A stretch of 63,906 nucleotides of DNA, counting the filler, from Stramenopiles sp. TOSAG23-2 (taxonomy: Eukaryota): the NCBI GenBank assembly GCA_900128395.1. It is 3 parts of 3 records of this genome, joined end to end, with 100 filler letters (N's around TTAATTAATTAA, not from the genome) between each part and the next. Parts side by side here need not be neighbours in the genome. Positions count along the whole stretch, not along the records: positions 45,191 to 63,906 come from LT649600.1; 2 more parts are not named here. The stretch is one strand, 5' to 3'. The position numbers and the translations under genes are program-made. The notes under the pieces are model-generated. The model saw only the letters and a program-made list of their open reading frames with translations. It was not told the origin of the DNA and did not search any database. Shown piece after piece: positions 22,536 through 63,906 of this stretch (its first letter is position 1; each line of letters opens with the position of its first letter).

Positions 22536-22635
22536 NNNNNNNNNNNNNNNNNNNNNNNNNNNNNNNNNNNNNNNNNNNNTTAATTAATTAANNNNNNNNN
22601 NNNNNNNNNNNNNNNNNNNNNNNNNNNNNNNNNNN
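22536..22635. other. Artificial contig-joining linker
   Basis: 44 N, then TTAATTAATTAA (stop codons in all six frames), then 44 N. Confidence 0.97.
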
Positions 22636-45090: not shown

Positions 45091-45190
45091 NNNNNNNNNN
45101 NNNNNNNNNNNNNNNNNNNNNNNNNNNNNNNNNNTTAATTAATTAANNNNNNNNNNNNNNNNNNNNNNNNNNNNNNNNNNNNNNNNNNNN
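45091..45190. other. Artificial contig-joining linker
   Basis: Same N44-TTAATTAATTAA-N44 structure as the first linker. Confidence 0.97.
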
Positions 45191-45882
45191 CTTCTTTATT
45201 ATATCCAGACTATTTGTTAAAGTAATTTATTAAATACACGTATAATAAAGTATTGCAACTATTTTAAAACTTTTAACTGTTATAGACGACTAGCACACTA
45301 AGCTGATGGAAAGCTGGAAAGACACAGATATTAGAGTCCCGAGAAAAAAAATGGATTTTAATTGGCTTCCTACGCCGTGTTCCCGAGAAAATACACACCA
45401 ACTTAACGTTATACAGGGGCTTAACAGTAGACCGTAGTACGTGCCTGCTAATTATACCAAATTTCAAGACTCCTAAAATAGGTCGCCTTAGCCTTTTTGA
45501 TAGGCTCTTTCTATACTCAATCGTCTCCGAAACCTAAGGTGAATAGCACTACAACAAATAGCTCGCAACAGAAAAGGAAAATTATCCGCATTGATTTTTA
45601 GAAAGGGATATTTCTATAATATGTATTAAAATTTGGATTCCGCCTCGATTTTTAGAATACTATTTAATCCTAATAGGTATGTTTTTATAAAAATAATCAT
45701 AATATGGATAAGAGAAAAATTATGGTTTTTTAAACCCCTCTATTTTTCATACTGTTATCGCCATATAGTTTCCCTTGAAAACGAGCAAAATAGATTTCGA
45801 CGATTTCAAAGATTCAAAAATAATAAAGATTTTGACAAATTTCTCAACACGTATAGACTACCTAACTCGCATAGGGTGATCG

Positions 45883-46018
45883 AAACCTATTTTTTTCGAT
45901 AGGTAATAAACCTATTTTTTTTTATAGGTAATAAACCTATTTTTTTCGGTAGTTAGTAAATCTTTTTTTTTTCGGTAGGTAATTATTATAAACCTATTGT
46001 TTTTCGATAGGCAATAAA
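45883..46018. repeat. Array of about five ~25-bp mini-hairpin units (aaacctat-Tn-cgataggtaat)
   Basis: The best-conserved units have ACCTAT...ATAGGT arms around a T-rich loop; the copies have diverged. Confidence 0.75.
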
Positions 46019-47253
46019 CGTTTGAACTCGTTGAAATTTTAGCTAATGTTGTGAACGGCCTAGCGCGCCCTATGTAAAGTGTACAGGACACACCATAGGC
46101 CATGCCCCAAAGATATTTGTACTTGTTTGTACTCTACCGATCCTATTTAAAATGATCGAGCGATTTTCCGGCCAGATCCTTTTCTGCCGAATCTTATAGG
46201 AATATTCTATTTTTAAATATAATAAAGTAAAATAGTAAAAATTTTTTTACACGCATCTCTCGTATAGTACTCTTGTAAGTATAATTACTTGCGCCTGTTG
46301 AAAAGAAATTAAACATAGTTTACTTTCGACAGGATTTTGTTGTTTGCATGGAGGGGTGATTTGAATAAGGCAAGTATTAAATATTATAATATCAAATTAA
46401 CATAAGGTATTGTCTCGTATAGTACTCTTGTAAGTATAATTACTTGCGCCTGTTGAAAAGAAATTAAACATAGTTTACTTTCGACAGGATTTTGTTGTTT
46501 GCATGGAGGGGTGATTTGAATAAGGCAAGTATTAAATATTATAATATCAAATTAACATAAGGTATTGATTTTTTTATATTTTAAAAGGGGGCCCGTCCTC
46601 TATGAGCATAAAAAAAGATTTTTCACTCGCGGGTAGAACTATTCAATAAATAATGAATAAACCATCAAGTCCATGAATCATTCCAACGCGCGCATCTCTT
46701 TCTCCTTTTTGGATAGATAATTCTGTTCCAGTCGCGCTGGCAATTCTCCCGGCGTTGCGGTGGTCTTTGACCCCTTTGACACCCCTGCGCGAGCATAAAA
46801 AAAGATTTTTCACTCGCGGGTAGAACTATTCAATAAATAATGAATAAACCATCAAGTCCATGAATCATTCCAACGCGCGCATCTCTTTCTCCTTTTTGGA
46901 TAGATAATTCTGTTCCAGTCGCGCTGGCAATTCTCCCGGCGTTGCGGTGGTCTTTGACCCCTTTGACACCCCTGCGCGAGTTGGAAAATCCAAACGGCGT
47001 CTCTGTCACGTGTAGCTGTACGTGATCGCTGGCGGATCCTTTGCGCAAAGATCCAACGCGGACCAGTAGTTGGCTTTTGTGCACATAACACGGTGGTCCG
47101 CGACGCTTTGCTTTGAATATGTCATCTTGGTGGTTTTGTTGAATCGATTGACGTGATGTTGGGTGGTGTACTCTGGTCAGACCGGCAATCTATTTCTTCG
47201 CAATAGTCGTGTAAGAAGGCATACGGGTTTAAAAAATCGATTCTGCACATCAA

Positions 47254-47477
47254 AAGGCGCAAAAGGCTGTTTTGGTCAAAATAGTAAAGCGGGCAGATTT
47301 TTTTCAAGAAGGTGCAAAAGGCGCAAAAGGCTGTTTTGGTCAAAATAGTAACGCGGGCAAATTTTTCTCTAGAAGGACCAGGAGGCGCAAAAGGCTGTTC
47401 TGGTCAAAATAGTAAAGCGGGCAGATTTTTTTCAAGAAGGACCAGAAGGCGCAAAAGGCTCTTCCGATCAAAATAGT
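47254..47477. repeat. 64-bp diverged tandem repeat (3.5 copies), iteron-like, upstream of the TVpol-helicase gene
   Basis: The unit (a/g)aggcgcaaaaggctgtt(t/c)tggtcaaaatagtaa... starts at 47254, 47318, 47382 and 47446, with exact 64-bp spacing. Confidence 0.9.
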
Positions 47478-47652
47478 GTAGAGGTGGGTCTGCCGCAGAA
47501 ACGTGTGCACAAATATGGAATATGCTACGAATAATCTTGGTGACAATGCAGTATCGATGGTCCACTGAGAAATGAGCAACCGCAAATCCGCCCCCATAAA
47601 ATCCATAGGGTCACCAAAATTTGAGTATAAAGGTTACCCCAAAATCTACAAG

Positions 47653-50600
47653 ATGAGTGAAAAACGAAAATTATCAGACTCAAATGAATCCTCGAAAAAG
47701 ACAAAACTACCTATTGACCAATTGACCCTTACAAAAGAAAAAAGTATATTTATAGACAAAACGTTTCGTGAGAAGGTAGACAAAGATAGGTTTATCAACT
47801 TGATGCACAGCAAGCAACTGTTAACCAAAATGCCTCCCGGTGCCAGTGGAAAGTGGGTGGAGATGAAGAAAACTCTGGGTCTAGAGAACGAATTCAAACA
47901 GTTCTTTAAATTGTACAAGAACATGACGCAAGAAAATACCATACGCGTTTATTACAATGCTTCCAAACACGGCTGGGGAAGAGTTTCGCCTGTGAAAGGA
48001 TTGTCTCTAGGCCTGGTTCGATGCGAACCTCGTCACACAGTCGCAAAAGACCTGTATAACGACATTGATATGAAAAATTGTTTTCCATCGGTCTTGCACC
48101 AATTGTGCCTTCGCCACAAGATTGATTGTCCCAAACTGTCGAAATATGTTGCACAACGCGAAGAGTGGTTAAAGCGACTTCAGAATACGCACAATAACAC
48201 GGAAAAAGTGGACGAGCATGGTAACCTACAACCGTGTGAAGAATCCATCTCGCGTGAGGAGGCAAAGAAACTTGTGTTGGAGATTTTACATGGTAAATCA
48301 TATTCCAATTGGAAAAAAGGTTCAATCAAAAAGAAAGATGGCAAATGGGTAAACCCTGTTACAGGAGAAGAGAATACACGATTCAACCCTAAAACGGGCG
48401 ATCTGGACCAAGAAACGATGGCATATGAAAAAGAGATTAAAGGCATTATTAAAGTGATAAAAGAAGCAAACCCTTCAATGTACAAAGAAGTGACAAAAGA
48501 CAAGGCATACAACAAAGATGGTACATTTATGTCCATCTATTTGCAAGAATGGGAGCGTCGGTTACTAGAATGTGCATATACCTTTTTCAAAGAGAAAGAG
48601 ATTATCGACGAATCGAACAACTGTGTCTTATGTTTCGATGGAATCATGGTTTCCAAAGACGCGGTAGAAGATATTCAGGCGTTGTTGATTGATTTGCAGC
48701 AATATATAAAAAATAACTCTGGGTTTGATATAACATTTGATGAGAAACCTATGGATAAAGGCTACGAGCATATTGAAAAAGCCAGACTGCGAAAATTGGA
48801 TATATTCGATTCGAAGTACATGCAATCGTTGGAGAGTTACTATCGAAAGAAGCAATATATCGAAACCTTTGTTGTCAAAATACAACGACCATATCCAAGA
48901 TATGTCTATACCCAACGAGAGTATATCAAAGACAAGTACGGGCTTCGAAGCGTCTTTAAAGTCACGACGTGGACGGAGCATGAGTTGAAATCGCTGTTGG
49001 CTGGTGTCACGTATGAAAAGAAAACTGGCAAAGATACAGAAACAAGGGGGTTTAGCTCGAGATGGCTTACCGATATCGACATCAAAACCGCCAATCGCCT
49101 GGTAAACCAACCATACAATGGTATCCTTGACCCCTCGAAACAAAAAACCAACGTTGGAGGCGAAGTGGTGTTTAACGTATTCCAAGGATACAATCCTTTG
49201 ATTCAAACGGATTGGAAGAAGACGCCTGAATTTTGTAAAGCGAAAGGTCAGAAACAGCCAACTCTGAAAGACATGGTCTCCCCGTTCCTCCGTCTAATGC
49301 GCGTATTGGCCGAAGGCGACAACCCAGACGAAGCAATGCGCGAGAGATGCTTTATCTTTCTAAGAAATTTGATTGCATGCAAGATTCAATTCCCCCAGCG
49401 GAAACTAGGAATATGCATTATTATGGAATCGTTACAAGGCGTTGGTAAAAATGTGTTCTGGGACGCCGGTGGAAGAATCCTAGGGTCTGAACAATACCTC
49501 TGCACCTCACAAGCAGACGACGTGCTGGGCAAGCACGCAGAAGCTGTAGGAAAGCTCTTAATTGCCATGAACGAATGCCAAGTGGGAGGCAACAAAGCAT
49601 ACGAAGGTTTATTAAAGTCGCGAATTACAGAAACACAGCTTCGAGTAAACCCGAAACATACGAGACCATTTGATGTGGAGGATTATGCGATGATTGTTGC
49701 GTTAACCAACAAGTCTAACCCTTTGCCGGTAGACATTTCCAGCATGGACAGACGATTTATCAGCTGGGAATGCGGTACAGAATACCGGAAAAAATCTTCG
49801 AACTGGTGGCAGGGATTCGTAGATTACCTCCACACCCCTGAATTTATTTCGGCTGCCTATGAATACTTTAATTCTGTTAATATCGCAGGATATGACTTTA
49901 AAGCCGAACGAAAAAAAGTTTTAACAAAGAGTTACCAACGATTGGCGGCCGTGAATGTTCCATGCGAGGCGCTTGTCCTTGCCGAAGTCTGCAAGCTGTT
50001 CGCCACATCGACCTATCCCGGGGATGGTATCTATTTCGAGATTCGTGGGTTGCTTCAAAAGACATTTGACAAACCGGAGGAACAAACGACGTTCACATGG
50101 TCACTGAACGAGAACGGCACAGTCACAGACATTCATCTGGATGGCATGTTCGAGGTTCAATTGGACAGCGGAGTGCTCATTCAGGCAAAGAAATCACAAC
50201 TAAAAGGTGATGTCGCAGTGGGGAAGAGGATTGAGCTTGTACATTTGACGCTAGAAAATGTAAAACAGTTTTTTGAAGAGTGTGGGATCAACCGAAGCTG
50301 TGAGTTCCTTGAGTATTATCTACATTCTCAAAGGGACAAATCATTCGAAACATGCGCTGAAGCAAAAACCAAGTTGGTTTATCAATGGATTCAAAAGATT
50401 ATGCACAACGAGGTTGAAATAAAAAAGTCGCAAATGTATAAATTCTACTGCTTGAAGATGGAAGAATGGAAATGTGCATTCGAACGAAGTGCGCGTAGAT
50501 TTTATCCCAAGGTACAAGAGCTACGACTGCCTGTGTCTGAGAAGCAAAAGAAAGGAAACGAACACTATTGTTTCCGTTTACACGACGTCTATTCAGAAAT

Positions 50601-50703
50601 GATTGAACGCAGCATGATTTGTCCTGACTTCGCGCTACCAGGTTACGACGAGGCAGAGACATCCGAAGAAGACACTGCACCATTTAATGTCAATGATTTT
50701 TGA
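47653..50703 (+). CDS. TVpol (family A-related primase-polymerase) fused to a superfamily 3 (D5-like) helicase
   Basis: PolA-like motifs: GWGRV...GLSLG...R, motif A DIDMKNCFP, motif B REEAKKLVLEILHG, then LQEWE and motif C CFDGIMV. SF3 motifs: Walker A SLQGVGKN, Walker B IAMNE, motif C ALTN, then DRRF. The start is probably the ATG at 47653; the alternative is 47572. Confidence 0.85.
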   Translation: MSEKRKLSDSNESSKKTKLPIDQLTLTKEKSIFIDKTFREKVDKDRFINLMHSKQLLTKMPPGASGKWVEMKKTLGLENEFKQFFKLYKNMTQENTIRVYYNASKHGWGRVSPVKGLSLGLVRCEPRHTVAKDLYNDIDMKNCFPSVLHQLCLRHKIDCPKLSKYVAQREEWLKRLQNTHNNTEKVDEHGNLQPCEESISREEAKKLVLEILHGKSYSNWKKGSIKKKDGKWVNPVTGEENTRFNPKTGDLDQETMAYEKEIKGIIKVIKEANPSMYKEVTKDKAYNKDGTFMSIYLQEWERRLLECAYTFFKEKEIIDESNNCVLCFDGIMVSKDAVEDIQALLIDLQQYIKNNSGFDITFDEKPMDKGYEHIEKARLRKLDIFDSKYMQSLESYYRKKQYIETFVVKIQRPYPRYVYTQREYIKDKYGLRSVFKVTTWTEHELKSLLAGVTYEKKTGKDTETRGFSSRWLTDIDIKTANRLVNQPYNGILDPSKQKTNVGGEVVFNVFQGYNPLIQTDWKKTPEFCKAKGQKQPTLKDMVSPFLRLMRVLAEGDNPDEAMRERCFIFLRNLIACKIQFPQRKLGICIIMESLQGVGKNVFWDAGGRILGSEQYLCTSQADDVLGKHAEAVGKLLIAMNECQVGGNKAYEGLLKSRITETQLRVNPKHTRPFDVEDYAMIVALTNKSNPLPVDISSMDRRFISWECGTEYRKKSSNWWQGFVDYLHTPEFISAAYEYFNSVNIAGYDFKAERKKVLTKSYQRLAAVNVPCEALVLAEVCKLFATSTYPGDGIYFEIRGLLQKTFDKPEEQTTFTWSLNENGTVTDIHLDGMFEVQLDSGVLIQAKKSQLKGDVAVGKRIELVHLTLENVKQFFEECGINRSCEFLEYYLHSQRDKSFETCAEAKTKLVYQWIQKIMHNEVEIKKSQMYKFYCLKMEEWKCAFERSARRFYPKVQELRLPVSEKQKKGNEHYCFRLHDVYSEMIERSMICPDFALPGYDEAETSEEDTAPFNVNDF

Positions 50704-50763
50704 CTGAAGGTGGAGAAGGCGCAAAAGGGAGTTTGAGATAAATTAGTGATACATTTTTATATT

Positions 50764-51111
50764 TTAACATACACATTGATATTTATAGATACTTGTTACT
50801 CTCTTATTGACTCTTCGCTGGAATTTCTTATATACAAATGGTATTTTGTAGAGGCGGCAGAGTCTTCTTACAAAGCTAGATACCAACCGGCGGTCTTTTG
50901 ACCGCTTGCCTTCCATCTTCTCCAACGTGTTCGCAATTGTTGGGAACAAGGAGATTAAATCGTGTTTGTTCCCCATAATATATGGATGTACCGATTCAAA
51001 CAACTCGTCTCCCAGAATCCACTTGTCTGGTTTAAATCCCGCAAGCGTCAGGATGTTTTTAGCTAGTTTAAGCCTATGTGCAGCAACGGTTGATATCGAA
51101 TCGAGGGTCAT
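50764..51111 (-). CDS. Small basic protein (115 aa), paralog A
   Basis: Shares AGFK, SFVRRL and RVTSxYxY with the adjacent ORF. Confidence 0.75.
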   Translation of the reverse strand: MTLDSISTVAAHRLKLAKNILTLAGFKPDKWILGDELFESVHPYIMGNKHDLISLFPTIANTLEKMEGKRSKDRRLVSSFVRRLCRLYKIPFVYKKFQRRVNKRVTSIYKYQCVC

Positions 51112-51240
51112 TTATGATTTGCAACCCCCTTTAAATACATTTTTTTGGACGACGATTCGAACATCCATTTGGTGACATTCGTTATTTCTATACAATGTCT
51201 CCCAAACACCCTTTTGAGCCTTCTGGGCCTTCTCCCCCCT

Positions 51241-51591
51241 TCACACTTTCACGACCGCGTAGAGGTATTTCGAGGTCACCCTGTTTTTTATCACCACCGA
51301 CTGCCTTTTCATGATGAGCCCGTTCAAGTAATATTGGCTCAAGCGCCGTACAAAGGATATCACATGCCGCTTCGATGCTTGCTGGCACGAGCTTAGCTTT
51401 GCCAGGGGATGCCCCACACGCTTCGTAAAGGTTGCCATGAACTTGGCTCTTTGGCGCCACAACAATGGATACAAGTTGCGCACGATGGCCTCGGCCGATA
51501 CAAAGACGTGGTAGGTTTTGAATCCAGCTTTTCGCATGAGGAATTTTGCCAGGCCCGCGCGTTTGTTTCTCAAGGAGGCTTTCGTTTTCAT
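51241..51591 (-). CDS. Small basic protein (116 aa), paralog B
   Basis: The ATG at 51591 gives nearly the same length as paralog A. Shared motifs are LAKxxxxxAGFK, SFVRRL and RVTSKYLY. Confidence 0.75.
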   Translation of the reverse strand: MKTKASLRNKRAGLAKFLMRKAGFKTYHVFVSAEAIVRNLYPLLWRQRAKFMATFTKRVGHPLAKLSSCQQASKRHVISFVRRLSQYYLNGLIMKRQSVVIKNRVTSKYLYAVVKV

Positions 51592-51806
51592 TGTGCGTAG
51601 AAGGACACCCACGTTTATAGTTGCCCACGCCACTTTGGGTGTCACTCAGGCGATTGCAAAATTTTTGTCCCTATATAATCGATGTCATGCCCCGTACGAT
51701 TCAAGTGCCGAACTGCATGCAATGTCGCAACGCGCCGGCCTAAGTAGGCCTTTTAGGCATTTGGGCATAAAGTTAAAATGAACGCATAATATAACACAAA
51801 AAAATT

Positions 51807-52370
51807 TCAGAAATCAGTATCAAAAATAGAATCATAATCTGAATTGTAAGGAGTGATATTTCCATGGTTTTCTACCGTAGATGAATTGCTAGTGCTATTT
51901 TCCTCTACTTGTTTCCGTATAAGTTCATCCTTTCGTGCAAATGCCGCTTTGTCATTTTTAAACCATCCGGGTTGCATACTTGTATTACAATACGGACATT
52001 TATACCACAAATTTATGTCTTCATCCAGTTTCGTCATTTTGAGAATACAACCACGGCATACCATCTTGTCTCTACCTTTGCACGTGGTACAATGGTTTTC
52101 CGTGCATTTTTCACCACACCATAATGCACAATCGGAAATTAGGAATTCTTCGACATCGTTTTTTAATTGTAGAAATTCATTTCCGTTTATATGTTGCTTG
52201 TGTTTCTTGAAGGATTTCCATATGCTCTCCATCGAACCGTCTTTAAAGCCCGAATTTACTGTTTGAACGACTTTGGCATATTTTCTGTCGCTGATTTTAT
52301 TGCGTAAGTTATAGTAAATACTATTCATGCAAGCTTGTGTAACTTCGGATTTTGATGTAAATTTGACCAT
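51807..52370 (-). CDS. RING-like zinc-finger protein
   Basis: Cys pattern CALWC...CTTC...VCRGCILKM...YKCPYCN, ending in the RING-typical CPxC. Confidence 0.65.
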   Translation of the reverse strand: MVKFTSKSEVTQACMNSIYYNLRNKISDRKYAKVVQTVNSGFKDGSMESIWKSFKKHKQHINGNEFLQLKNDVEEFLISDCALWCGEKCTENHCTTCKGRDKMVCRGCILKMTKLDEDINLWYKCPYCNTSMQPGWFKNDKAAFARKDELIRKQVEENSTSNSSTVENHGNITPYNSDYDSIFDTDF

Positions 52371-53828
52371 TATTTCTGAAGGTTTTTGATAGGTTTCGTT
52401 TATATACTTAGAGTCTATAATTCGGAGATTGTATACGCAAAGGTATAATGTCGAAATTGTTATTTAATTAATAAAGGGCATGTTGTATCAGAATATTCTT
52501 ATCAAATTCGGACATTTAAATGGTACAATAGCACTGGACAGTGGTGTGCACGGCCTAAAAACAAATGCGAAAACCCTACACTTGTTGATAGCCCCAAACC
52601 GTACTTGGAAATCCTCCACACAATGGGAATTATTCCGTCTGAAAACTTAGGTCGTTTTTTCCGAAACACGTTTTTACTGCGGTTATTTATAATCTCTAAC
52701 TCGCTTTTAGGAATCCTCATCTTTTAATGAACGCTATTCAATGCTACGAGACACGCCGAAAAAAAGACTTAGAAAAGAGGTTTTAGGCGGCTGTTCCGCT
52801 GCTGGAAAGGATGATTTTGAGAGAAATGGAAATTTAGTGCGCGGTAGCGTGAGAATCGATTTTGAGACTATCTGGCTGCTATTCACAACATAGAAATACT
52901 ATTACAGGAGCAAAATTAATTGATGTAGTTACAACAATACCTTAATAATCAGGATTTTTGCTGGGCTTTTTCTATTCGTTTGCATCACACAGCAATGCAA
53001 ACAGGAGAGTCCGAGCTGTTGGTATTTTTACACTGGTTTGTAGCCTCCGAACCTATGTTAAAAGGTATATTTATCGTAGTCTAATGGCCCACTTGGATTG
53101 GGACCTAAATAGGCAAATCCTTTACAAGTTGGGCAGTTTAGCGCACTAGAGATTTAAAAAATGAATAGTCAATAAACGGTGCATCCAACGAAAATTTCTT
53201 TTGCAAGCGTATCATTCTACAAATCATACATAAAATAAAGAAGTGCTATATAGTTGTATTACTAGAGCAAGAATCTACGGACGCATATCTAATCTTTTGT
53301 TTACGTGTATAGATATTTTTTTTATACAGTTGTTTCATCAAAGGTTTTTTGGGATCGCTGATCGTTGGACGGATATATATATATATATTAGGTCTTCGAT
53401 AGTGTTGATCTACTTTTATTTTAGCGGCTTTGGTTGTTTTGTTTGCCCATAGTTGTTTTCGGAAGTATAGTCGCCTTTCAAGCATTCGATTGTAATAACG
53501 CGCTTCTATTCTTTTGGAAACGCGCATAGCTATTGTTTTACGTGGTCGGTTGATTTTTTACAAAATTTTGTTTGGTATCGCTTCGATCGTGAAGCAAATA
53601 ATTTTTTTTAGTAGACTTCTTTTCGAACTGCTGATCTACTGTTTTATTGAGCAACTTTGTTGTTGTATTCGTGAGGTTGTGTTTGTACTGGATTGATTTT
53701 TAGTAATTGCAGTCACGAACTAGTTGCCACGGTTGTTGATTTTTTATTTCGACCCATAACAGTTAAAAAAATCTGTTACTGGCTACTACAGGAACGTTTT
53801 CAACGGCTGGCAAACGGTGACAAACGGT

Positions 53829-55625
53829 ATGACTCGCCAAGCGCTTGCTGTTGTTTGGTGCTGTTTTTTGCTGGTTGCTTCCGTGTATGCGGCGGAGTGG
53901 GATTGTGCGTCTAATGCTGTTGTTACTATTTATAATACTACCATAGATGGTAATTATGGTGGTATGTTTATATATTCCAGTAATGTAACAATGACAAATA
54001 CAATCATATGAAATAATCAAGTTTTTGCTGGTAGTGGAGGTGGCCTCTCTATATGGGGTGAAGATAGTAGTACAGTCATTCTCCGCCAATCATCATTTAT
54101 CAATAATGATGCAAAATATGGTACCAATAATGATCAAATTTATGGTAATGGTGATGAAATATATACAGAATACTCACCAACCATATCATTAATAAATACA
54201 TATTTCAACAATCCAAACTCCAAAAATGCAATCCATGTCACCAAATGTTTCTACGATTGCTGGCGGTGTCATTACAATTGTAAATGGCGAAAATTTTGGC
54301 TCAAGTTCAAATTCTTACATTACGTTTTCCGTTATTGATGTAAATGCAAATAAAGATATTGTATGGAAAGATATTAATTATGTTTCTCCAACTGAGATTA
54401 ATGTTACTTCCGTATTTGGTTTAGGCCAAAACTTGATTGTTCGCTTGATTGTGGATGGTATTGGTAGCACTTTCTTAAATATGTCAGAACAATTTAAATT
54501 CAGTTATTTAGATCCAAAAATCAATGACATAATTTCACCTCCATTGCTTGGAGGTACGTTATAAATCATCGGCGAATCATTTGCACCACAAGCGGAAAGT
54601 TTTACACAGATTTTCATCGTAGAAAATTGTCGTGAGAATTTATGCATTGAACTTGTAATAGTAAGTATATTCTCCGAATAAACCAAAAGTAGAAATCGTC
54701 TTTAACACGTCATTCTTTTTATACGCTACGCTCCAAAGGTATCTTCTGCTAAAATAACATGTCAATATATTGGATTGGATTAGCGAATGTTTGTACAAAT
54801 AAAACAGTTGTTGTACGCACACAATTTGAAAGTAACATTCGTAGTTCAAACGCACAACAATTGTGCTATAATGTAGATCGAGATGAAATATTAAATGTGC
54901 CTACATTAGAGCAAACAATAGAAGAAGTCGATGGCATTGTATCCTATTCTATATTGTTATCCCCAGCAGTTGTTCCGACAAAGGAGGTACGAAATAAAAT
55001 ACAAAGCAAAGCGTATGATTATCTCAACAACCAATTAGATATGCGAGAAGGATATCGATGTTTAACATCAACAACTGTAATTATTGTCACAGGAACCAAT
55101 CATGATATATCTCAATCTGTTATAGTCACACCCGAAGATAATAAAGTTGATGAAGGTACGTTAGAAACCATAGCATATAAATGCCGAGTATTTCATAGTA
55201 TAGAATCGTTAGATAAGCAATATGTAAGTAAATGTTATTCCTCTTTAATATCGTAGATATGCTCTCTAACACTTTCATACGCTACAATCCAAAACTAGAA
55301 TCAATCAAGATATTACGAATCAACGTTCTAAATGATGATAATGCTGATTTAAAGTTACAAATCGAAGATGAAGTAAATCCTAGTATGTTTGATCCAGATA
55401 AAGTAAAATCGATTGGTCCAATGTGTTTAACTGAAATGTCTAATGTTACGTATGGTATTACATTAAGTTCTGAACCAACAGAAAATGTTCAAGTATGCCA
55501 CCAATTACAAAATGTTTATACAGATTCACCATTGCAATTTCAAATATATCCAAATGGTCTGTACCCACGAATGAATGGACTACTGCACAAGAATGTGATC
55601 CGGAGGGAGAATATTTAAACACAAC
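53829..55625 (+). pseudogene. Decayed host-type cell-surface protein gene (signal peptide, beta-helix/Pmp-like repeats, IPT/TIG domains, further beta-rich domains)
   Basis: Signal peptide MTRQALAVVWCCFLLVASVYA. An in-frame TGA at 54009 is followed by NNQVFAGSGGGLSI...SFINNDA. A frameshift leads into IPT-like SMSPNVSTIAGGVITIVNGENFG...FSYLDPKI. Further stops occur at 54562 and 55254, with more frame changes. Confidence 0.7.
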
Positions 55626-55652
55626 ATGTGATTATCCATTCATAATTATTTT

Positions 55653-55925
55653 ATGCTTCTATTCGAAAAGAGGGTAGAGGGAGGTGCGTATCTGAAGGAT
55701 GAAGATTGGACACTTCCCTCCATTGTCAAACAGATTCGCTCCTCTGATGTATTCACTTCTCTTACAAGAAGGGACAAGTATAGCAAAGAATTGACTGCCG
55801 CGGCTATGAAGGAATTCTTCAAAACAAATGCGTTTTACAAAAAAGATGTGAACTACAGCAGCAGCATGAAGAAATTCTCATTAAAAGGATGGAGATTAGT
55901 TGTAGAAGGAGATGCTGATGAATAA
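55653..55925 (+). pseudogene. Protein-like fragment, possibly the C-terminal remnant of a viral-type helicase gene
   Basis: Coding-like stretch SDVFTSLTRRDK...KEFFKTNAFYKK...LKGWRL starts abruptly after the AT-rich pseudogene. The assignment is by impression only. Confidence 0.3.
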
Positions 55926-56273
55926 AAACAAATGTATATATTATGAAATATCAAATGTATATTAAAAAGTAATTTACGGGAAAAATTACAGGGTTTGGGT
56001 AAGCTCCCGTGTGGGGCAAAAGTCATCTGCCACCTGCCGGCAGTTGGCACTTGTAAAATCCCAAGAATCTCGAGCAAGCAAACCCTTGCATTTTTTCCCG
56101 TTTTCCCGCAAGTTTTTGGATGCTAAAATGAAGCAAACAATAGGAATAAAATTATGTATAGATTCGCTTAATTTTTATTTCGCACGCACCACCTGCGCCA
56201 GCACCGAACATGTTGGTTAATCCAATAGACGCAATGGGCGCAATGCACGCATATTGTCTCATAAAGGTTCGCA

Positions 56274-56744
56274 TTATACCTGTTCTTCTAGAATTTTCTC
56301 CAGTTGCCGTATCTCATTCTTCAATTTCGAATTTTCTTCGAAGATATTGAAAAAGGTATGGTTTTGTTCCAAATATTGATCGTGCAAAGTCAACCTTTTT
56401 CTGATAAGGCCTATGCTTTCTGTGAACTGATGATCCAACGTAATCAATCTCTGTATAATGTGCTCGCACGATAATTGCAAAGCAGCTTCTCTTTGCTCCA
56501 ATGCGTTCATTCTTTGGGTTAAAAAATTATCCATGGCAGCAACGGCGTGGAGTGTTTCCAAATCCGGCATAGGTCTTGACTGTGTTGCGCGGTGTCTGTT
56601 ATACTCTGTCATATGTTTGCAAGCTTTGTGCGAAGAATATAAAAAGGCCTTGCACGTACACGAGACAGGCCTCCCGTTCTCTACCACGAGATTGTATTCA
56701 ATGCTTGGGTTGGTTTCCGATTGTATTTTGATAATTGAATTCAT
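56274..56744 (-). CDS. SWIM zinc-finger protein with a C-terminal coiled coil
   Basis: SWIM pattern YxV...CxC-x9-CKH (YNLVVENGRPVSCTCKAFLYSSHKACKHM) followed by heptad-rich helices. Confidence 0.8.
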   Translation of the reverse strand: MNSIIKIQSETNPSIEYNLVVENGRPVSCTCKAFLYSSHKACKHMTEYNRHRATQSRPMPDLETLHAVAAMDNFLTQRMNALEQREAALQLSCEHIIQRLITLDHQFTESIGLIRKRLTLHDQYLEQNHTFFNIFEENSKLKNEIRQLEKILEEQV

Positions 56745-57284
56745 TTTTAAGTGTTGGTATCAATAGCTTTTTTCTTTTTTGATTATGTAAAAAGATATTT
56801 TGTATGTGTGTATATTTATTCATTCAAGTTTTTTTTAGATGAATAGAAAAGTATGGTTTAAAGAAGAAGAGTTGATCAAAGGTGATACTATCATGTCGTT
56901 ATTATTGGATCCTCATCAAGAAGAAAAAAAAGGGGGGATTGGATGCCTCCTTGTCTGCAAAGTCAAAATTAATGGATAGAAAGGCAACTTTAAGCCTATT
57001 ACATGGTAATAGATGCCGAAAAAATTAAACTATTTAAAAGAACTTTTTAAAATACTCTTGGCTGCAATTCAATGCTATCTCATAGTATGGTTGATCGGAT
57101 CCTTGCAATAATACTGCCACAAAACTAAAAGATCGTGTGTAACAAGTGTGCATGTATGAAAAGTGACATATGCAAAAAGAAGTGATATAACCAACATATC
57201 CATTTAGTCATCTACTATACATTGATTTATTTCTCATAATTACATGTTGCGATAAAAAAATAATTTTTTTTGTGTATTTTTACT

Positions 57285-59702
57285 ATGAGTTTTCTCTTCA
57301 ACTTGTTTAGTGGATCCCAACCTGCCGAAGAGGAAAGCGGCGAAGACTTGGACAGTAGTAGTGAAACTGAACAGGATCAAAGCGATAGCCAAGAAGTTCA
57401 TACAAGACCATCTGGCTCCACATTGACACATGAATGTATGAGGAAAGCAAAGAGACAGAAGAAAAATAATGTCGAAGATAACAGTCCAGTTATGAAAGGA
57501 TTCTCTATGCAACATACACAAGCACCTATACAACATATGCAAACGTGGCCTGTGAAAAGGTATGAACCGTCACTGGGCGTCCAAGAGCCATATACCAATA
57601 ACAAACCGGTTTCGCAACCAAACCAACCGTACAGTGACATCATGTCTCCTGTAAGAGGCCAGCAACATTATCCGATGAGCAATTTTATGCAAAATTCTAA
57701 TGCGCAAAATTCCAATGCGCAAAATTCCAACGCTTTCCCGCCACGAATGATGCAACAAGAAAGAAACGCAGCATATCTTTCTCCCCCAAGGTTCTCCAGA
57801 GAAACGCGACAAGTCTATGATCCAAGGTTGTCTAGTCCTAATCGATCGCAGGAACTGGCGTTGAACCCCTACCAATCTCCGCATTATCAATCAGAAAGCG
57901 TTCATTCAAGCTTTCCAATGTTCCACAAGATGGAGGAATCAAACTATCAAACCCCACGCCCTTCCCCGGCACGCGATAATAACTCAACAAGGTTGAACTA
58001 TCACAAAAAACCTGCATGGCCAGTGATAGACCGAGACCGCAACGAGTCAGACGAGTCTGGTGATTTTGCATCTAGTTCTCAAGCAAGTTTGGACAATGAA
58101 GAACAGGCAGAGAAGAACAATAAATGCGCCTTTTGTAAAATGGGAAAAGAGAGTGGCGAGCAAGTGCTTGGACCATATTCAAAAGTTGGCTCTTCAAGAA
58201 AATATTATGTTCATGAAACCTGCGCAAGATGGTGCCCTGATTTGAAAGAATTCTCTCAGTCTACTTTGTACCCACCACCACGAAGGTTTAACGTAGTGTT
58301 GATAAAAGCAATCACGCGTTCTAGTGCATTGAAATGTGCATATTGTAGAGAAAAGGGAGCCGGTATTGGATGCATTGATCACAAATGCAAACATTCCTAC
58401 CATCTACCATGCGCAGTGAAAGATGGTGCGGCCTTTGTTCGTATAGAGAATTTTTTACAGAAGCAAAAGATTGTACCCTTTCTCTGTGGCATTTATTGCC
58501 GAGATTGTAGCCCATTCCATCAGCACATTCCATCCACTCCAAATCACCCAATGAATGTGTACAAAATGCTGCAAAACAATCGGTTTAAACCAGAAGAAAT
58601 GAAAGAAATGGCACGCACATTGTTAATCGTGGATAAAGTGGTGAACGAACGCGAAGGAAAAAAAAAGAAGGAGGTGGAGGTAAAATTCTTTGGTGGAAAC
58701 TATTCACAGTGGGTGCAAGTGGAAGATGTTCCAGATTCATTACTTCGTCATCGTCATTCGAAGATGAAGAAAAGGTCTCCTTTGTACAATGCTACTTCAG
58801 AAGAAGACAACAACGAAGAAGAGGAAGAAGAAGAAGAGGAAGAAGAAGCCGACGAAGAAGTGTGTGATGTATGCAAGGGCGAAAAATCAACCAGTAGGAA
58901 TCCAATAATTTATTGCGATGGAAAAGGTTGTGAAGTAAGTGTCCATAAACGATGTTACGGTATTTCAAGCGTACCCAAAGGAAAGTGGTTGTGTTATCGC
59001 TGTGCTGCTCAAGCACCATTGAATACGAAATGCTCGCGCTGCAATTCCGCAAAAGCTAGTCAAGCAATGACATGCAAATTCTCCGAATGGGTACATGTTA
59101 CATGTCTGAACGAGGATAGGAAGTTTCAAGTGGCAAAAGGGTCCTCCTTTTCTTCTGTGAAAACTCGGCGTGCACTTCAAATGGCAAGAATAACACCTCG
59201 TGATAGGCAAGATATTTGGGAGATTATCCTTCGTGAAGAGACGCATGTAAAATGCCCTGTATGTAGAATCAACCACATCAAAAAGGAGGGTTCGTTTCAA
59301 TGTGCGCATATTGACGCAACAGCGAAGGGTAAAGGGAAAACTGCACAAGAGGAGATATGGAATATGATACCATCTTGTAGTAAATGCAATTTGACATGCA
59401 ATACAAAAAACTTGATTGATTTTATGGATAATTCTATCATGATGCGACCACACATTAAGCCACTCTTGTTTCTAAAGGTAAAATCCATTATACGTAGTCA
59501 AATGGATTGTTGCCCGTTAAGCATCAAAGAAATCCTCAGTGAGAAAAATTTTGTAACAGTAGTCGGAAAACTATACAACCCTAAAAAAATGTCTACAATC
59601 GCTCGCTTGTTGACACTATCGTCAGAGGAACACCATAATTTGTTTGTGGAACCGGACGAACCGGCACCAGTACACTTTTACAATAAATTTCTTAGCAAAT
59701 AG
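57285..59702 (+). CDS. Chromatin-reader/HNH nuclease fusion: disordered N-terminus, extended PHD, chromo-like domain, acidic tract, PHD with Zn-knuckle, HNH endonuclease
   Basis: ePHD: CAFC...VHETCARW...KCAYC..KGAGIGC...CKHSYHLPCA...YCRDC. Chromo-like: IVDKVVNER...EVEVKFFG..YSQW. PHD: CDVC...NPIIYCDGKGCEVSVHKRCYGI..VPKGKWLCYRC. HNH: RQDIW...CPVC...FQCAHI...WNMIPSCSKCN. Confidence 0.85.
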   Translation: MSFLFNLFSGSQPAEEESGEDLDSSSETEQDQSDSQEVHTRPSGSTLTHECMRKAKRQKKNNVEDNSPVMKGFSMQHTQAPIQHMQTWPVKRYEPSLGVQEPYTNNKPVSQPNQPYSDIMSPVRGQQHYPMSNFMQNSNAQNSNAQNSNAFPPRMMQQERNAAYLSPPRFSRETRQVYDPRLSSPNRSQELALNPYQSPHYQSESVHSSFPMFHKMEESNYQTPRPSPARDNNSTRLNYHKKPAWPVIDRDRNESDESGDFASSSQASLDNEEQAEKNNKCAFCKMGKESGEQVLGPYSKVGSSRKYYVHETCARWCPDLKEFSQSTLYPPPRRFNVVLIKAITRSSALKCAYCREKGAGIGCIDHKCKHSYHLPCAVKDGAAFVRIENFLQKQKIVPFLCGIYCRDCSPFHQHIPSTPNHPMNVYKMLQNNRFKPEEMKEMARTLLIVDKVVNEREGKKKKEVEVKFFGGNYSQWVQVEDVPDSLLRHRHSKMKKRSPLYNATSEEDNNEEEEEEEEEEEADEEVCDVCKGEKSTSRNPIIYCDGKGCEVSVHKRCYGISSVPKGKWLCYRCAAQAPLNTKCSRCNSAKASQAMTCKFSEWVHVTCLNEDRKFQVAKGSSFSSVKTRRALQMARITPRDRQDIWEIILREETHVKCPVCRINHIKKEGSFQCAHIDATAKGKGKTAQEEIWNMIPSCSKCNLTCNTKNLIDFMDNSIMMRPHIKPLLFLKVKSIIRSQMDCCPLSIKEILSEKNFVTVVGKLYNPKKMSTIARLLTLSSEEHHNLFVEPDEPAPVHFYNKFLSK

Positions 59703-60015
59703 ATTTGGGTCTATATTCAACCGTTGGTATAGATTGTAAATCGAGTTGATGCGCCTCGACCAGTGTAAATACCACCAAATCTTGACAATTATTGCTAGTG
59801 ATATGCACCGTAATAGTGTCACCATCTTTCTGCAACCGAATGGTAGAGTTACTGCCCAGTTGGGTCAGCAGAATCCTGTTAGCATGATAAGTGCCTAGTT
59901 TACAGAATCGTATAGCAAATGTAGCATTGTTAAAGGGAAGTTTCGCTTGGAGGCTCAAGTAGATAGTGTCGCTAGGAGTAATACGAGCAGTAAACATATG
60001 GTTTAAAATATCCAT
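59692..60015 (-). CDS. Small hypothetical beta-rich protein (107 aa)
   Basis: ATG at 60015. It fills the gap between two large ORFs and its end overlaps the PHD-HNH stop by 11 nt, which is virus-like packing. Confidence 0.45.
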   Translation of the reverse strand: MDILNHMFTARITPSDTIYLSLQAKLPFNNATFAIRFCKLGTYHANRILLTQLGSNSTIRLQKDGDTITVHITSNNCQDLVVFTLVEAHQLDLQSIPTVEYRPKSIC

Positions 60016-60067
60016 TGATGGAATATAAATTATATTTATAGTCAAAAAATATCTGAAAGCTATTCTT

Positions 60068-63049
60068 TTATACGGGCGCATTAGCATATTCATGGACACG
60101 TGGGTTTACTAATGCTTCGCCGTTTCGTTTGCTGCCACTCAAGCGTCTCATCAAGCGTCCACATAGTGAATCGTCGTTCTCCGAATCGTAGTCGGTTGCT
60201 TGCTTGAATTTTTCATTCCAACGTTGTTGCGCCACCTCCATTCTGTTGTCCCATTGTTGTTGGAGCGAGGTCAAATTGTATTTGCAAATAACACGATATA
60301 GTTCCCACACCAATTTAAACCAAAAGATTTGCGCATTCTGCTCCAATGTTGTCAATTTGCACATGTTCACAAATCTGTCTTCGTTAGCACCATTAGAGCC
60401 ATCGTATTCCGCAAAGTGTTTGTATTCTTTCTCCCACGAAGGAGGATGGCTTGGATGCGAGGACATGCGGTCAATAACATAATCTGTAAATTCGAAAAGA
60501 CTGGCTAACTTGCGAAGATTGCATTTGAAAGGCGTATAGCTTTTTTTCACAACGTTTCGAGACACGTGATTTTCTTTCATGCAAATCATCGCGATGTCTT
60601 CATTGATTTTATTCAAAATATCTCCAGAATGACAATTACCTTCCGCTTTTAGATAATCGTATATTTTAATCAATAAAATCGCTGAGCCGTATCTTCCAGC
60701 ATAATCGTATTCCAATTTACAATTCGCTCGAGCTGCAATTTTTAAATGCTCTGGAATTTCACCAGTGTAAACCATTGGGTCAACATTCCCAAACCATTTT
60801 TTTGGTAATACAATTTTACCTGTGCGCACGATGGTTTTCCATAATGTATCCATTTCGGTAATGGATTCTGAAACCCCAGGATTATTCCCTTTCCCTGTAT
60901 TTGGCAATTGCAAGGTATTTGGTGGACGCACCGCACATGTCATGGTTTTTAAAGGTAATTTCATCTCCTCACCATTAATAGTAAATCGAGCAGTCAATTG
61001 AGAAACCTTTTTGCTGTATACATCGTTCTTCCAAACGTTGAGTGCTTTTAAGTCGTTTGGTAAAAGCTGTTCTGGATTGGTTAAGCATTTAATGACTGCA
61101 TCATGTGGTGTATTTTCTGGTACAACAGGTGAAATGAACACTCTTGAACCATACTTGTAGTTTGGCGTTACGAGCGGAAACAGATGAATCTTCGTGCAGG
61201 TATAATTGGAACGGCCTTTTTTTGCACCTTTTGTGATGGCTATTCGTGGTTCTGTGTTGTTGTATAAGACTCGATGTCCAGTACAGTGCTCATATGCATC
61301 CACTAAATCGCAGCAAAAAGCATGCAAACCTTCTTTCTCACCTGTTTCATGGCCATTGATGATAAAATTAAAATCCGTTTTTTTCTTTTGTTTTTTGTCA
61401 TCATCCCGTCTCATTTTTGCCTCTTTTTTAATGATGCGAAATCGATTTCCATGCATTACAACAATGGATAATCCATAGTCAAATTTGGGCAATCCTTCTG
61501 GATAACTAGCTACGCCTGCCGTATCACCATTTGGATTAAACAATTGATAATCTTTTTGCGATTTTATATGAATTTGGATATTGTTCATTTTACGCATACT
61601 AAAACGACAAGAAAATTCGAGGGGAGTTTGCCATTGTGTAAATGTATGGGCATAAGGTGTGTCTTTTAATTGCATCTTCACATGATGAATCATGTCATAC
61701 ACATCTTCCAATGTGTTGCCAAGCAAAGAAGGTGCTTTGTATCGTGTACCAGCATTCTCTGCTTCTTCGTGTGCTACTACTAAGGCGGCAAAATAAAACC
61801 GAACCCACCTTGCACCTTCGTTCGTTTGAACAAGGTATTTAATGAATTTTCTTGGTGTCGTACCATGCAAACCTTTCATATGGCCGTTCATCGAATACAA
61901 ATAAATTAATTCTTTGTAAATGTTTCCAGATACCATATTGTTGTGAAATGTGTCGGTATTTTTTCGAATTTCGGCGAAGTTTTTTTGAAATTTGTGCGCG
62001 TTTTTCACCTCCTGATGGAATTGGAAATCGGTTCTTTTGTCGATGAGGCTCCCCAACGTAATGACGTCAGGCACTTTTGTTTGCATAATAGCGTTTACAA
62101 AATCTTGCTGCATTTTTAAACGTTTGTTTGGTTTTGCATTCTTCTTCTTTTCGATAGTTGCCCCTTTTTTTATTTTTCTCAATCGCACGGCATCGTGGCA
62201 ATGCTCAATTGCATTGTTTTTCGATTCGATATTGTAAAGGTAACATGCTGCTTTTAACCCATTGCCTATTTTACGCCCAGCAGTTGCTACCGATTCACCA
62301 GATAATGTGCCGTTGTTTATCATACAAAAATCTGTTTTAGGTGCAATGTTTTTCACCGTTTCCCATTGATTTGGAATATTCAACAATTTCGCACATTCTC
62401 TTGCTATGGATTCGTCATCATCTTTTTCTTCTTCTGTTTTAAATGCGGTTTTCAACTTGTGGAAGTAGCGAATGGTACGATTCAAGTGAATCAACGGCGC
62501 ATCGTTGTTTCTCAAGGTTTCTTTGCGTGTGTTCACAATAGACAAGATTTTGGATTTACAGCGCAAACCAGACCAAAACTTGGAGGATGTGTTGTCTTCT
62601 TTTGTATATATTAACCAGTCGATAAACGTATTTTGGTGTTTATCGTTTCTGGATAAATTATAGTTTTTCGATGCAGTAATTACTTCGGCGGCATAATCAC
62701 AGTGTTTTATATGATCCAAGATGGAAATAAATTCATCTATCGTATAAACGACAATACAACGAGTAGTGATGCCTTGATGTTTACATATCGCTTTGATTTC
62801 AGCATTCATTGCTTTGTGTGCAGGTGAATTATGTTTCATCTTTAACGTACGGGCTGCTTTGGTTATTAATGATTTTTCAAATTCCGTGTAATTGAAAGCC
62901 GATACCCAGATCTTGACATCTTTTACATAGTAAACTGATTTGAGAGGCGAACCTTTTCTCGCGTCTACGATCTGAACGCTCTCGTATTGTGTCGTTTCTC
63001 TTTGCAAAGGTTCTTCGAAGACTTTTTGATTGCCAATGAAACCAAACAT
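60068..63049 (-). CDS. Large orphan protein (~990 aa)
   Basis: Uninterrupted, high-complexity ORF. The likely start is MFGFIGNQ at 63049; the alternative is 63232. No family was recognised. Confidence 0.75.
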   Translation of the reverse strand: MFGFIGNQKVFEEPLQRETTQYESVQIVDARKGSPLKSVYYVKDVKIWVSAFNYTEFEKSLITKAARTLKMKHNSPAHKAMNAEIKAICKHQGITTRCIVVYTIDEFISILDHIKHCDYAAEVITASKNYNLSRNDKHQNTFIDWLIYTKEDNTSSKFWSGLRCKSKILSIVNTRKETLRNNDAPLIHLNRTIRYFHKLKTAFKTEEEKDDDESIARECAKLLNIPNQWETVKNIAPKTDFCMINNGTLSGESVATAGRKIGNGLKAACYLYNIESKNNAIEHCHDAVRLRKIKKGATIEKKKNAKPNKRLKMQQDFVNAIMQTKVPDVITLGSLIDKRTDFQFHQEVKNAHKFQKNFAEIRKNTDTFHNNMVSGNIYKELIYLYSMNGHMKGLHGTTPRKFIKYLVQTNEGARWVRFYFAALVVAHEEAENAGTRYKAPSLLGNTLEDVYDMIHHVKMQLKDTPYAHTFTQWQTPLEFSCRFSMRKMNNIQIHIKSQKDYQLFNPNGDTAGVASYPEGLPKFDYGLSIVVMHGNRFRIIKKEAKMRRDDDKKQKKKTDFNFIINGHETGEKEGLHAFCCDLVDAYEHCTGHRVLYNNTEPRIAITKGAKKGRSNYTCTKIHLFPLVTPNYKYGSRVFISPVVPENTPHDAVIKCLTNPEQLLPNDLKALNVWKNDVYSKKVSQLTARFTINGEEMKLPLKTMTCAVRPPNTLQLPNTGKGNNPGVSESITEMDTLWKTIVRTGKIVLPKKWFGNVDPMVYTGEIPEHLKIAARANCKLEYDYAGRYGSAILLIKIYDYLKAEGNCHSGDILNKINEDIAMICMKENHVSRNVVKKSYTPFKCNLRKLASLFEFTDYVIDRMSSHPSHPPSWEKEYKHFAEYDGSNGANEDRFVNMCKLTTLEQNAQIFWFKLVWELYRVICKYNLTSLQQQWDNRMEVAQQRWNEKFKQATDYDSENDDSLCGRLMRRLSGSKRNGEALVNPRVHEYANAPV

Positions 63050-63906
63050 GTTTTGTGTTCTTGTTTCGTGTCTTGTCTCGTGTTGAGGGTTGTGGTGTAT
63101 TGTTTTTTTATCTCTGTTGAAATATATGTATGTACGGTTGTTGCATGCACGTGTTGGTTGTGTGCGTGTTGGCGTACATAATTTATTAATAGTGTTATTT
63201 TCATAGTATAAAATATCGTAAAAACAAGCCATATTTTTTTTTTCTCGTTTATTTTCATAAATTGTATGTGCTGCTAGAATATTCTAATAAAATTCCAACA
63301 TTTTTTTAGCACTACACAGGACCCACAAAAACGTGCATATTATTCCCATGCTAATTTACAAAATTGGTCCTTTTTCCAGATGGATTTTCTAATCGAGCGC
63401 TCGAGCTCTCCATTTTGCACGGATTTTGGGTGTTTTTAAGGATGTTGCCGGAAATAGTTGGGATAGTTCAATTTCGACGTTGGGACTTTCCGGTAAAGTT
63501 GAGCCTATGCTGTGTGCTGCTAATTCCAACTTTACGGCGAACTTTGCGGCTTTTTTTATTTTGAATGGTCAAAAATGCCTTGTAATCCCATAGTGACTAT
63601 TTTTCTCGGGATCGCAGGAACTGTACATTGGGAATAGGCCGGTTAGCTTGTGATTAGATTATATAATATGGTATATGCATCCGAAGTTTATAGCTTCCCT
63701 TAATATAATATTAAGGGCGGAGGAGGATCGATTTTGTAGATCTAAAAAAATTGCACCATCAGCTGATCGTCAGCTTCGTGCGGTATTAATAATAAATGTA
63801 TGTCCCCTACATTAGTTGTTACGTCACAGGGTCCTCATTTTAAGGATTATTAACATAAAGTGGTTTAAATTGTTTCTAGTATAAATAGTAATACTGTTGG
63901 AGTAGC

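Follow-up and report, generated by a model that had tools for sequence, protein, structure and literature searches.

Background

Fusions of a family A-like polymerase domain (TV-Pol) to a superfamily 3 (SF3) helicase, termed TVpol-S3H, serve Sputnik-type virophages and many polinton-like viruses (PLVs) as their only replication protein. The passages cited here describe the fusion as the primase-helicase of Sputnik, OLV and YSLV1 (PMC3671162), as the replicase of PgVV and other PLVs (PMC4642659), and as present also in integrated cryptophyte PLVs (PMC12220804), while the V13-type family of virophages is described in sections of PMC2579912 and PMC3671162. The defining features of TV-Pol, as given in the cited part of PMC2579912, are a thumb, a hairpin arginine, two palm aspartates and a fingers helix with an RxxxK motif. 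According to the cited part of a 2020 paper on SCCmec, CCPol of that element was the only TV-Pol to have been studied biochemically, and both of its catalytic residues, D169 and D324, are required for extending primers as well as for priming (PMC7581432). No member from a eukaryotic virus is known to have been characterised biochemically. CCPol extends primers alone, and priming with deoxynucleoside triphosphates needs a small OB-fold partner, MP, as stated in the cited sections of PMC7581432 and PMC10061031.

Here we describe an open reading frame (ORF) encoding such a fusion in DNA of Stramenopiles sp. TOSAG23-2 (assembly GCA_900128395.1); by the window we mean the whole stretch analysed, 63,906 nucleotides with filler included. 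The N-terminal half of the protein is a TV-Pol domain and the C-terminal half a D5-type SF3 helicase, which is what an initial annotation, made from the sequence alone, had rightly assigned. The protein is a divergent addition to the well-known virophage/PLV TVpol-S3H family and as such an ordinary family member; its setting is unusual and stripped-down, since the gene is solitary without virion genes, intact and transcribed, and lies in an island of foreign composition with a boundary motif of its own. We consider it probable that the ORF is a complete TVpol-S3H replicase and that the locus is a capsid-less PLV or virophage remnant or mini-element, intact and expressed. A narrow search of the open-access literature found no account of a solitary expressed TVpol-S3H gene.

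Gene model

The ORF (Table 1) is free of stops across 1043 codons, for which the probability at the regional base composition is about 5e-31, and a TGA stands in frame just 5' of it at 47566-47568. The initial annotation had placed it at 47653..50703. Its uninterrupted course was borne out, while its start was not, as 47653 is the codon of M28, an in-frame second ATG (MSEKRK), and the ORF opens 81 nt further upstream; judging from the sequence, the true start may be either M1 or M28. The motifs quoted in that annotation were all recovered, each once and in frame: DIDMKNC (residues 164-170), CFDG (354-357), QGVGKN (622-627), AMNE (665-668) and TN inside ALTNK (710-714). The public gene model of the protein, P0002, has 967 amino acids (aa), residues 385-460 having been taken out as an intron. 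A contig from a poly(A) library (RNA run X9, record 28, 48648-49033) follows the genome colinearly and unspliced over that interval, with 0 differences, which favours the uninterrupted ORF over the intron.

The lineage-specific basic N-terminal extension is common to the close relatives P0019 and P0023; P0003 and P0005, of about 30% identity, start some 50 residues later and do not have it. From its sequence, the extension may be a nuclear-localisation signal. An acidic, aromatic-ended C-terminal tail was found in 32 of 99 relatives by an ad hoc rule, and we take it to resemble the polymerase-docking tails of T7 gp4 and gp2.5.

Polymerase half of the protein

Residues 1-560 had no explaining profile in Pfam, PHROG or PDB sequence searches, and the N-terminal half matched none of 50,697 phage records by tblastn. 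A scan of 1.84 billion representative proteins with this half yielded 2,599 relatives at E<=1e-3, of which 938 reached E<=1e-10 and 43 reached E<=1e-30, mostly of 750-950 aa, and in a 57-sequence alignment R137, R154, D166, R196, K232, E328, D356, G357 and K392 were invariant. The structure predicted for residues 1-543 (predicted local distance difference test, pLDDT, 83.9; predicted template-modelling score 0.75) had 76 matches in the PDB by Foldseek at E<=1e-3, with family A polymerases filling the top places in the order apicoplast polymerase (8.4e-6), Bst, Klenow, Pol theta, Pol nu and T7. VIA-align over 48,161 chains gave Pol theta at Z 14.9 (root-mean-square deviation 3.7, 278 aligned) and Klenow at Z 14.5 (286 aligned), with Pol nu and T7 DNA polymerase both reaching Z 12.3; every one of ranks 1-17 (Z 7.0-14.9) was a family A DNA polymerase or a T7-like RNA polymerase, and the first different fold was a family B polymerase at Z 6.7, the Pol A top standing 8 Z-units higher. 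The PolA palm and fingers fold, whose absence the initial annotation had named as fatal to its assignment, was thus matched by both methods. Among predicted viral structures the best named match was the Zamilon 'DNA replication protein' (E 1.7e-19), followed by the Qinghai Lake virophage 'helicase/primase/polymerase' (E 1.3e-17) and then by a Catovirus protein, a Pyramimonas orientalis virus protein and phage Pol A enzymes.

The model also holds the elements by which TV-Pol is defined. The thumb is formed by helices 71-116; the hairpin arginine, R137, lies at strands 123-130/138-140, and R154 is also in the domain; D164 and D166 lie in the motif A strand (162-167), D356-G357 in the motif C hairpin (351-361) with D356 at its turn; and the RxxxK motif, R228-EEA-K232, starts the fingers helix 228-239. 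D166 and D356 are taken as the palm aspartates without a one-to-one mapping onto polA D705 and D882. In non-significant hhalign alignments with Escherichia coli Pol I, R228 pairs with R754 and K232 with K758 of the O-helix, and the GRV hairpin (R137) pairs with the TGR668 segment of polA, that alignment being itself non-significant. The catalytic and conserved residues of both halves are all present in the window protein. As to a fused nuclease or proof-reading domain, Pfam gave no exonuclease family and about 41 disordered residues precede the polymerase core. The beta-rich linker or collar at residues 422-540 resembles the C-terminal residues 303-391 of NrS-1 (Z 6.0, 82 aligned), and at the same position some relatives have a Pfam D5_N match.

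Primase-helicase fusions with a domain of the archaeo-eukaryotic primase (AEP) type are the commonest architecture, and one could ask whether the N-terminal half is such a primase, like that of poxvirus D5 and African swine fever virus (ASFV) C962R, instead of TV-Pol; the DID of DIDMKNC presumably resembles the DxD motif of AEP. We give this alternative practically no credence, in view of the family A and T7-like folds that fill ranks 1-17 of VIA-align while other folds reach at most Z 6.7, and of the order of hairpin arginine, aspartate strand, RxxxK helix and aspartate hairpin, which is that of Pol A. No clear AEP primase was among the 50 VIA-align matches listed, an absence from a list that excludes no family.

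Helicase half of the protein

In the C-terminal half, Pfam DUF5906 matched residues 620-728 (E 4.8e-15) with 56.7 bits, the cutoff being 27.6, and PHROG 1156, 'DNA primase', residues 572-741. Among PDB sequences the helicase part of the NrS-1 primase was found at E 3e-8 with the single sequence and at 6.9e-29 with a family profile, and below it in the profile search came poxvirus D5/E5, the SaPI5 primase-helicase and ASFV C962R. The model of residues 544-1043 (pLDDT 77.8) had NrS-1 as its best fold (Z 22.7, 293 residues), followed by SaPI5 (Z 18.0), C962R (Z 17.7), D5 (Z 15.3) and PriRep1 (Z 14.4), with Rep40 and E1 weaker at Z of about 10-11. G623, G625 and K626 of Walker A, E668 of Walker B (N667-E668 in this protein), N713 of sensor-1 and R727/R728 of the arginine finger are at least 90% conserved in 50 sequences. 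The profile match, the NrS-1/D5-type fold and these residues together confirmed the proposed SF3 helicase with Walker A, Walker B and motif C.

Expression and natural variation

Among the 24 public runs listed, 20 contain part of the ORF and eight are on record as RNA, poly(A) metatranscriptomes from four studies being among these eight. Two RNA runs from two studies (X6 and X9) and two DNA metagenomes (X4 and X7) were compared over 45200-57300. The contigs of X6 (19) and X9 (23) cover about 47050-50725 at an identity of at least 99%, with 0-4 differences per listed contig and no splice joint within the ORF, and one X6 contig lies at 51232-51554, in orf116. The depth of both RNA runs is zero in 45200-46815 and 51664-53279, where the DNA run X4 has a depth of 7.5-23. 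The check on expression that the initial annotation had called for was therefore positive, poly(A) RNA contigs of two studies covering the ORF. Its view that the element is recent, active or domesticated fits as well, because the catalytic residues are intact, the codon usage is unameliorated and poly(A) RNA contigs exist, though it is a broad either/or.

DNA contigs of 90-99% identity show 9 nt inserted in frame at 49030 and 1 nt missing two codons ahead of the stop. The substitutions listed number nine inside the ORF, with 197 further differences over the whole compared stretch; six of the nine are at third positions, and five are synonymous and four nonsynonymous.

The locus and its codon usage

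Identical blocks of 44 N, TTAATTAATTAA and 44 N stand at 22536-22635 and 45091-45190. The window therefore consists of three joined contigs, and adjacency across the blocks is no evidence of linkage; the 12-mer TTAATTAATTAA, with stops in all six frames, we take to be a spacer for joining contigs. The TVpol-S3H gene is on the contig 45191-63906, to which all claims of linkage are confined. To the left of 45191 Pfam recognised FtsJ, myotubularin, malate synthase, an amino-acid transporter, calpain, TPT and phosphoacetylglucosamine mutase, all eukaryotic housekeeping genes; these lie on different sequence beyond an artificial spacer and are not shown to adjoin the TVpol-S3H gene.

Within this contig, an island of about 5 kb (~46.6-51.7 kb) comprises the TVpol-S3H gene, orf115, orf116 and the upstream repeats, and has foreign codon usage and a private motif. 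orf115 and orf116 are paralogous (28% identity, E 4e-10). The GC content at third codon positions (GC3) of the TVpol-S3H gene is 0.46 and its codon-preference correlation to host genes 0.67, the correlation being 0.57 for orf115 and 0.18 for orf116. Ten Pfam-annotated genes have GC3 of 0.14-0.39 and correlations of 0.85-0.97, among them a PHD-finger protein (GC3 0.39, correlation 0.85), and two ORFs downstream of the island, of 187 aa and 1054 aa, have GC3 of 0.35-0.37 and correlations of 0.85-0.88.

The private motif, of about 23 nt, was found five times in the window with at most two mismatches against 0 expected, all within 47308-51232: at the two places given in Table 1, and three times in the 64-nt repeats upstream of the ORF. 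It was absent from the 81 loci searched, and all viral contigs together gave 11 single matches, about the number due to chance by a rough estimate. The shared motif ties TVpol-S3H, orf115 and orf116 into one unit, and it might be a promoter, terminator or origin element. The 64-nt repeat lies within, or at the 5' end of, the stretch covered by RNA. The leader held just one 10-nt palindrome when searched for inverted repeats and hairpins, and a scan for bacterial promoters and terminators stayed at background level. Its 155-nt and 187-nt duplications stand back to back (46258-46980), both 100% identical, and may have arisen recently or in assembly; small insertions, e.g. of 8 nt after 46309, distinguish the DNA contigs of other samples in this interval.

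Table 1. Positions of the features of the TVpol-S3H locus, counted along the window
Feature	Position	Strand	Remark
Artificial contig joint (left limit of the gene-carrying contig)	45091..45190		44 N + TTAATTAATTAA + 44 N
25-nt repeat, 5 copies			leader upstream of TVpol-S3H gene
155-nt exact tandem duplication	46258..46567		leader
187-nt exact tandem duplication	46604..46980		GC-richer non-coding leader
64-nt tandem repeat, 3.5 copies, with boundary motif	47251..47477	+	
TVpol-S3H ORF, 1043 aa	47572..50703	+	alternative start M28 at 47653
Basic N-terminal extension, residues 1-41, pLDDT <50	47572..47694	+	KRK...KKTK
TV-Pol (family A-like) polymerase domain, residues 42-401	47695..48774	+	
Beta-rich linker/collar domain, residues 422-540	48835..49191	+	
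SF3 (D5-like AAA+) helicase core, residues 565-795	49264..49956	+	
Low-confidence insertion, residues 833-913, pLDDT mostly <50	50068..50310	+	
C-terminal helix/strand domain, residues 928-1013	50353..50610	+	inside the aligned C-terminal span of NrS-1/D5
Acidic tail, aromatic end (...EEDTAPFNVNDF)	50641..50700	+	
Motif copy, GAAGG-N5-AAGGCGCAAAAGG	50706..50728	+	3 nt past TVpol-S3H stop codon
orf115, GC3 0.46	50764..51111	-	no family match
Motif copy	51210..51232	-	9 nt past orf116 stop, ~100 nt upstream of orf115
orf116, GC3 0.68	51241..51591	-	no family match

These data bear on a rival explanation, namely that the gene is a host gene by domestication, a viral replicase retained by the protist for a function of its own, be it priming and unwinding of nuclear or organellar DNA or interference with the replication of giant viruses or virophages. 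Such a history would agree with an intact ORF in which all catalytic residues are present, with the poly(A) RNA contigs from two studies and the 31-mers shared with two further RNA studies, with the basic N-terminal extension that close relatives have and the ~30% relatives P0003 and P0005 do not, and with structural genes not having been found nearby. We nonetheless think it rather unlikely: the gene departs widely from the other genes in codon usage, which speaks against long residence, close copies (P0023 and P0032) are apparently decayed, two metagenome scans gave no orthologue in conserved synteny, and the sample of variants (nine in the ORF) is too small for selection to be read from it.

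Search for a provirus

The TVpol-S3H gene is not in a recognisable provirus. When 1098 ORFs of 80 related viral loci were compared with the window by tblastn, none of the 82 matches fell outside the TVpol-S3H ORF. Pfam found no capsid, ATPase, protease or integrase in 82 stop-to-stop frames of the flanks, where it recognised a TIG domain and a weak zinc finger only, and no capsid, packaging ATPase, protease or integrase family in 20 large ORFs of the window; such searches could miss very divergent PLV capsids. The best boundary alignments in a search for terminal repeats scored 19 and 22, below the maximum of 33 that shuffled controls reached, no inverted repeats were found flanking the island, and the window gave no tRNA gene and no Rfam match.

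A second rival, that the contig is a complete active PLV or virophage provirus with unrecognisably divergent genes, or an episomal or viral contig, draws on its length of at least 18.7 kb, which is PLV-sized, on its repeat-rich end 2.4 kb upstream of the gene, and on the poor coverage of PLV capsid proteins by Pfam. It could also count orf115, orf116, the 187-aa Zn-ribbon ORF and the 1054-aa ORF, which have no known family, and as a lead only the viral RING-like proteins that are the nearest atlas clusters of the Zn-ribbon ORF at a score of 0.90. Against this stand the tblastn result with the 1098 viral ORFs, the 82 flank frames free of virion genes, terminal repeats that do not exceed shuffled controls, and the host-like codon preference (0.85-0.88) of the Zn-ribbon ORF, the PHD protein and the 1054-aa ORF, so that we rate a provirus as very improbable.

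Other ORFs of the contig

Downstream of orf115 and orf116 lie the 187-aa Zn-ribbon ORF, TIG-domain fragments and a SWIM-like ORF, and further downstream the 805-aa PHD-finger protein and the 1054-aa ORF. Searches gave no convincing family for orf115, orf116, the Zn-ribbon ORF or the 1054-aa ORF. The Zn-ribbon ORF (51807-52370, minus strand) is Cys-rich and RING-like, and ends in ...SIFDTDF, acidic and aromatic like the tail of the replicase; its 11 relatives, of 44-99% identity, are on short contigs only, and the score to its nearest atlas clusters, viral RING-like proteins, is weak. In the PHD/ePHD-finger protein (57285-59702, plus strand), residues 633-725 weakly resemble PHROG 2214, a family of phage HNH endonucleases (E 2.6e-4). 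The region 53829-55925 (plus strand) is a series of ORF fragments that change frame; its beginning resembles a signal peptide, and a TIG/IPT domain lies at 54196-54561 (E 7.7e-6). We read it as a gene for a surface protein that is split or else frameshifted. RNA contigs match it in part only, their continuations diverging at 54071 and 54217; splicing at these points was rejected, there being no GT after 54217, and the loose ends may derive from paralogues.

Relatives and phylogeny

IMG/VR held 383 stretches encoding relatives, the best 80 of which were analysed (25-34% identity, contigs mostly of 4-30 kb). Pfam was run on 112 ORFs from eight of the loci and recognised the Sputnik major capsid protein in three (L024, L035 and L048), the V18/19 penton in four, an A32-type ATPase in four, a GIY-YIG nuclease in three and collagen repeats in two. 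With two of the capsid proteins so found as phmmer queries, 23 of the 80 loci received a capsid label. Relatives of about 30% identity serve as the replicase on viral contigs of 14-30 kb, many of which have capsid genes of Sputnik type. In a quick FastTree tree of 99 full-length proteins, with local supports only, a midpoint root and capsid labels that depend on partial contigs, the window protein has a long branch (1.07), with P0020 (35% identity) as its nearest neighbour. It falls in a clade of 32 rows (support 100), which includes 22 database proteins, eight viral loci without a capsid match and one with such a match; 19 of the 20 capsid-labelled rows are in the other large clade, of 54 rows. 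Closer protein relatives are P0019 (77% identity, 370 aa), P0150 (74%), P0023 (70%) and P0032 (69%), and two metagenome scans returned no close relative as DNA from which synteny or the ratio of nonsynonymous to synonymous substitution rates could be taken.

Three relatives are of interest in their own right. P0026 (773 aa) has the same TV-Pol domain fused to another ATPase region, and a protein of Pyramimonas orientalis virus (BFVD A0A7M3UP97) has a TV-Pol-like domain although its label is 'replication origin-binding protein domain'; TV-Pol seems to have exchanged its helicase partner repeatedly. The IMG/VR locus L010 (23.8 kb) has, next to the replicase relative, a YqaJ recombinase, an RNase T-like exonuclease and the large subunit of ribonucleotide reductase, more replication functions than contigs of virophage size usually carry.

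Weighing of the evidence

The reading that we prefer, an intact and expressed TVpol-S3H replicase in a capsid-less remnant or mini-element, has several points against it. The RNA contigs show neither RNA ends nor strand nor level, and RNA libraries can hold DNA. Nine variants in the ORF are too few as proof of purifying selection. The linkage of the island to genes of eukaryotic type is seen in one contig (45191-63906) of one assembly. CCPol needs its small partner to prime, and no such partner is shown in the window, orf115 and orf116 being at most candidates for an MP-like role. The similarity of P0023 and P0032 ends partway, as in decayed copies, and suggests from the sequences that the TVpol-S3H family of this gene also decays. 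Lastly, hhalign against E. coli Pol I, taken alone or as a profile with 12 close relatives, gave E values of 0.39, 0.82 and 0.58, the Pol I profile being a shallow one of 13 sequences of 70-93% identity. A sequence-profile link of TV-Pol to Pol I has been published as significant (PMC2579912, in the part cited), and the connection made here to Pol A comes from the predicted structure and from that published analysis, as distinct from sequence statistics of our own.

Granted a complete replicase, its working can be outlined by homology. The C-terminal D5-type SF3 AAA+ domain would act as a ring helicase that unwinds DNA with the energy of ATP; the ring would pass single-stranded DNA to the fused family A polymerase; and this minimal polymerase, which has no exonuclease, would start and extend DNA chains on the exposed strand. 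Enzymatic activity, hexamer formation and priming are what we infer for the window protein, and in the same way the repeats may have a role as origin or promoter and the island may be integrated in a host chromosome. It is conceivable, if doubtful, that the locus is a pared-down replicon lacking a capsid, or one that has since been domesticated, made up of the replicase, two small paralogous partners and iteron-like repeats, with a private motif at its gene boundaries, and preserved intact and expressed in a marine protist. Should that be true, the locus would represent a novel kind of minimal DNA element, selfish or co-opted, that replicates or interferes with the replication of viruses and never forms particles. 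An intact copy expressed in nature, in a cell's assembly and without virion genes, offers a handle on retention by the host as against persistence as a minimal element, a possible example of such retention being defence against giant viruses, and the gene is a candidate for expression and assay.

Comparison with known systems

Among described proteins, those of the virophage V13 type (Sputnik V13, Zamilon, Qinghai Lake) are like the window protein in their two-domain architecture and conserved residues; they differ in that identity is about 30%, in that the window protein is in a different clade of the tree from most capsid-labelled loci, and in the lack of virion genes at its locus. The window protein is also about 170-200 residues longer than P0003-P0007 (835-873 aa), the extra length coming from the basic N-terminal extension, from insertions in the fingers and from the insertion at 833-913. 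NrS-1, poxvirus D5 and ASFV C962R have the closest solved fold to its helicase half (Z 22.7, 15.3 and 17.7), but the priming domains at their N-termini belong to the AEP/prim-pol type, whereas that of the window protein is of family A. With CCPol the comparison, as far as the cited text goes, is one of catalytic positions, D169/D324 being comparable to D166/D356; the bacterial CCPol-MP/Cch2 system keeps polymerase, OB-fold partner and helicase separate, whereas the window protein fuses polymerase and helicase. The PLV replicases of PgVV, PLV-YSL1, PLV-RED1 and the cryptophyte PLVs are the same fusion as the window protein; in the sources as cited, they sit in elements of 14-40 kb with capsid and packaging genes, whereas the gene described here stands with two small ORFs.

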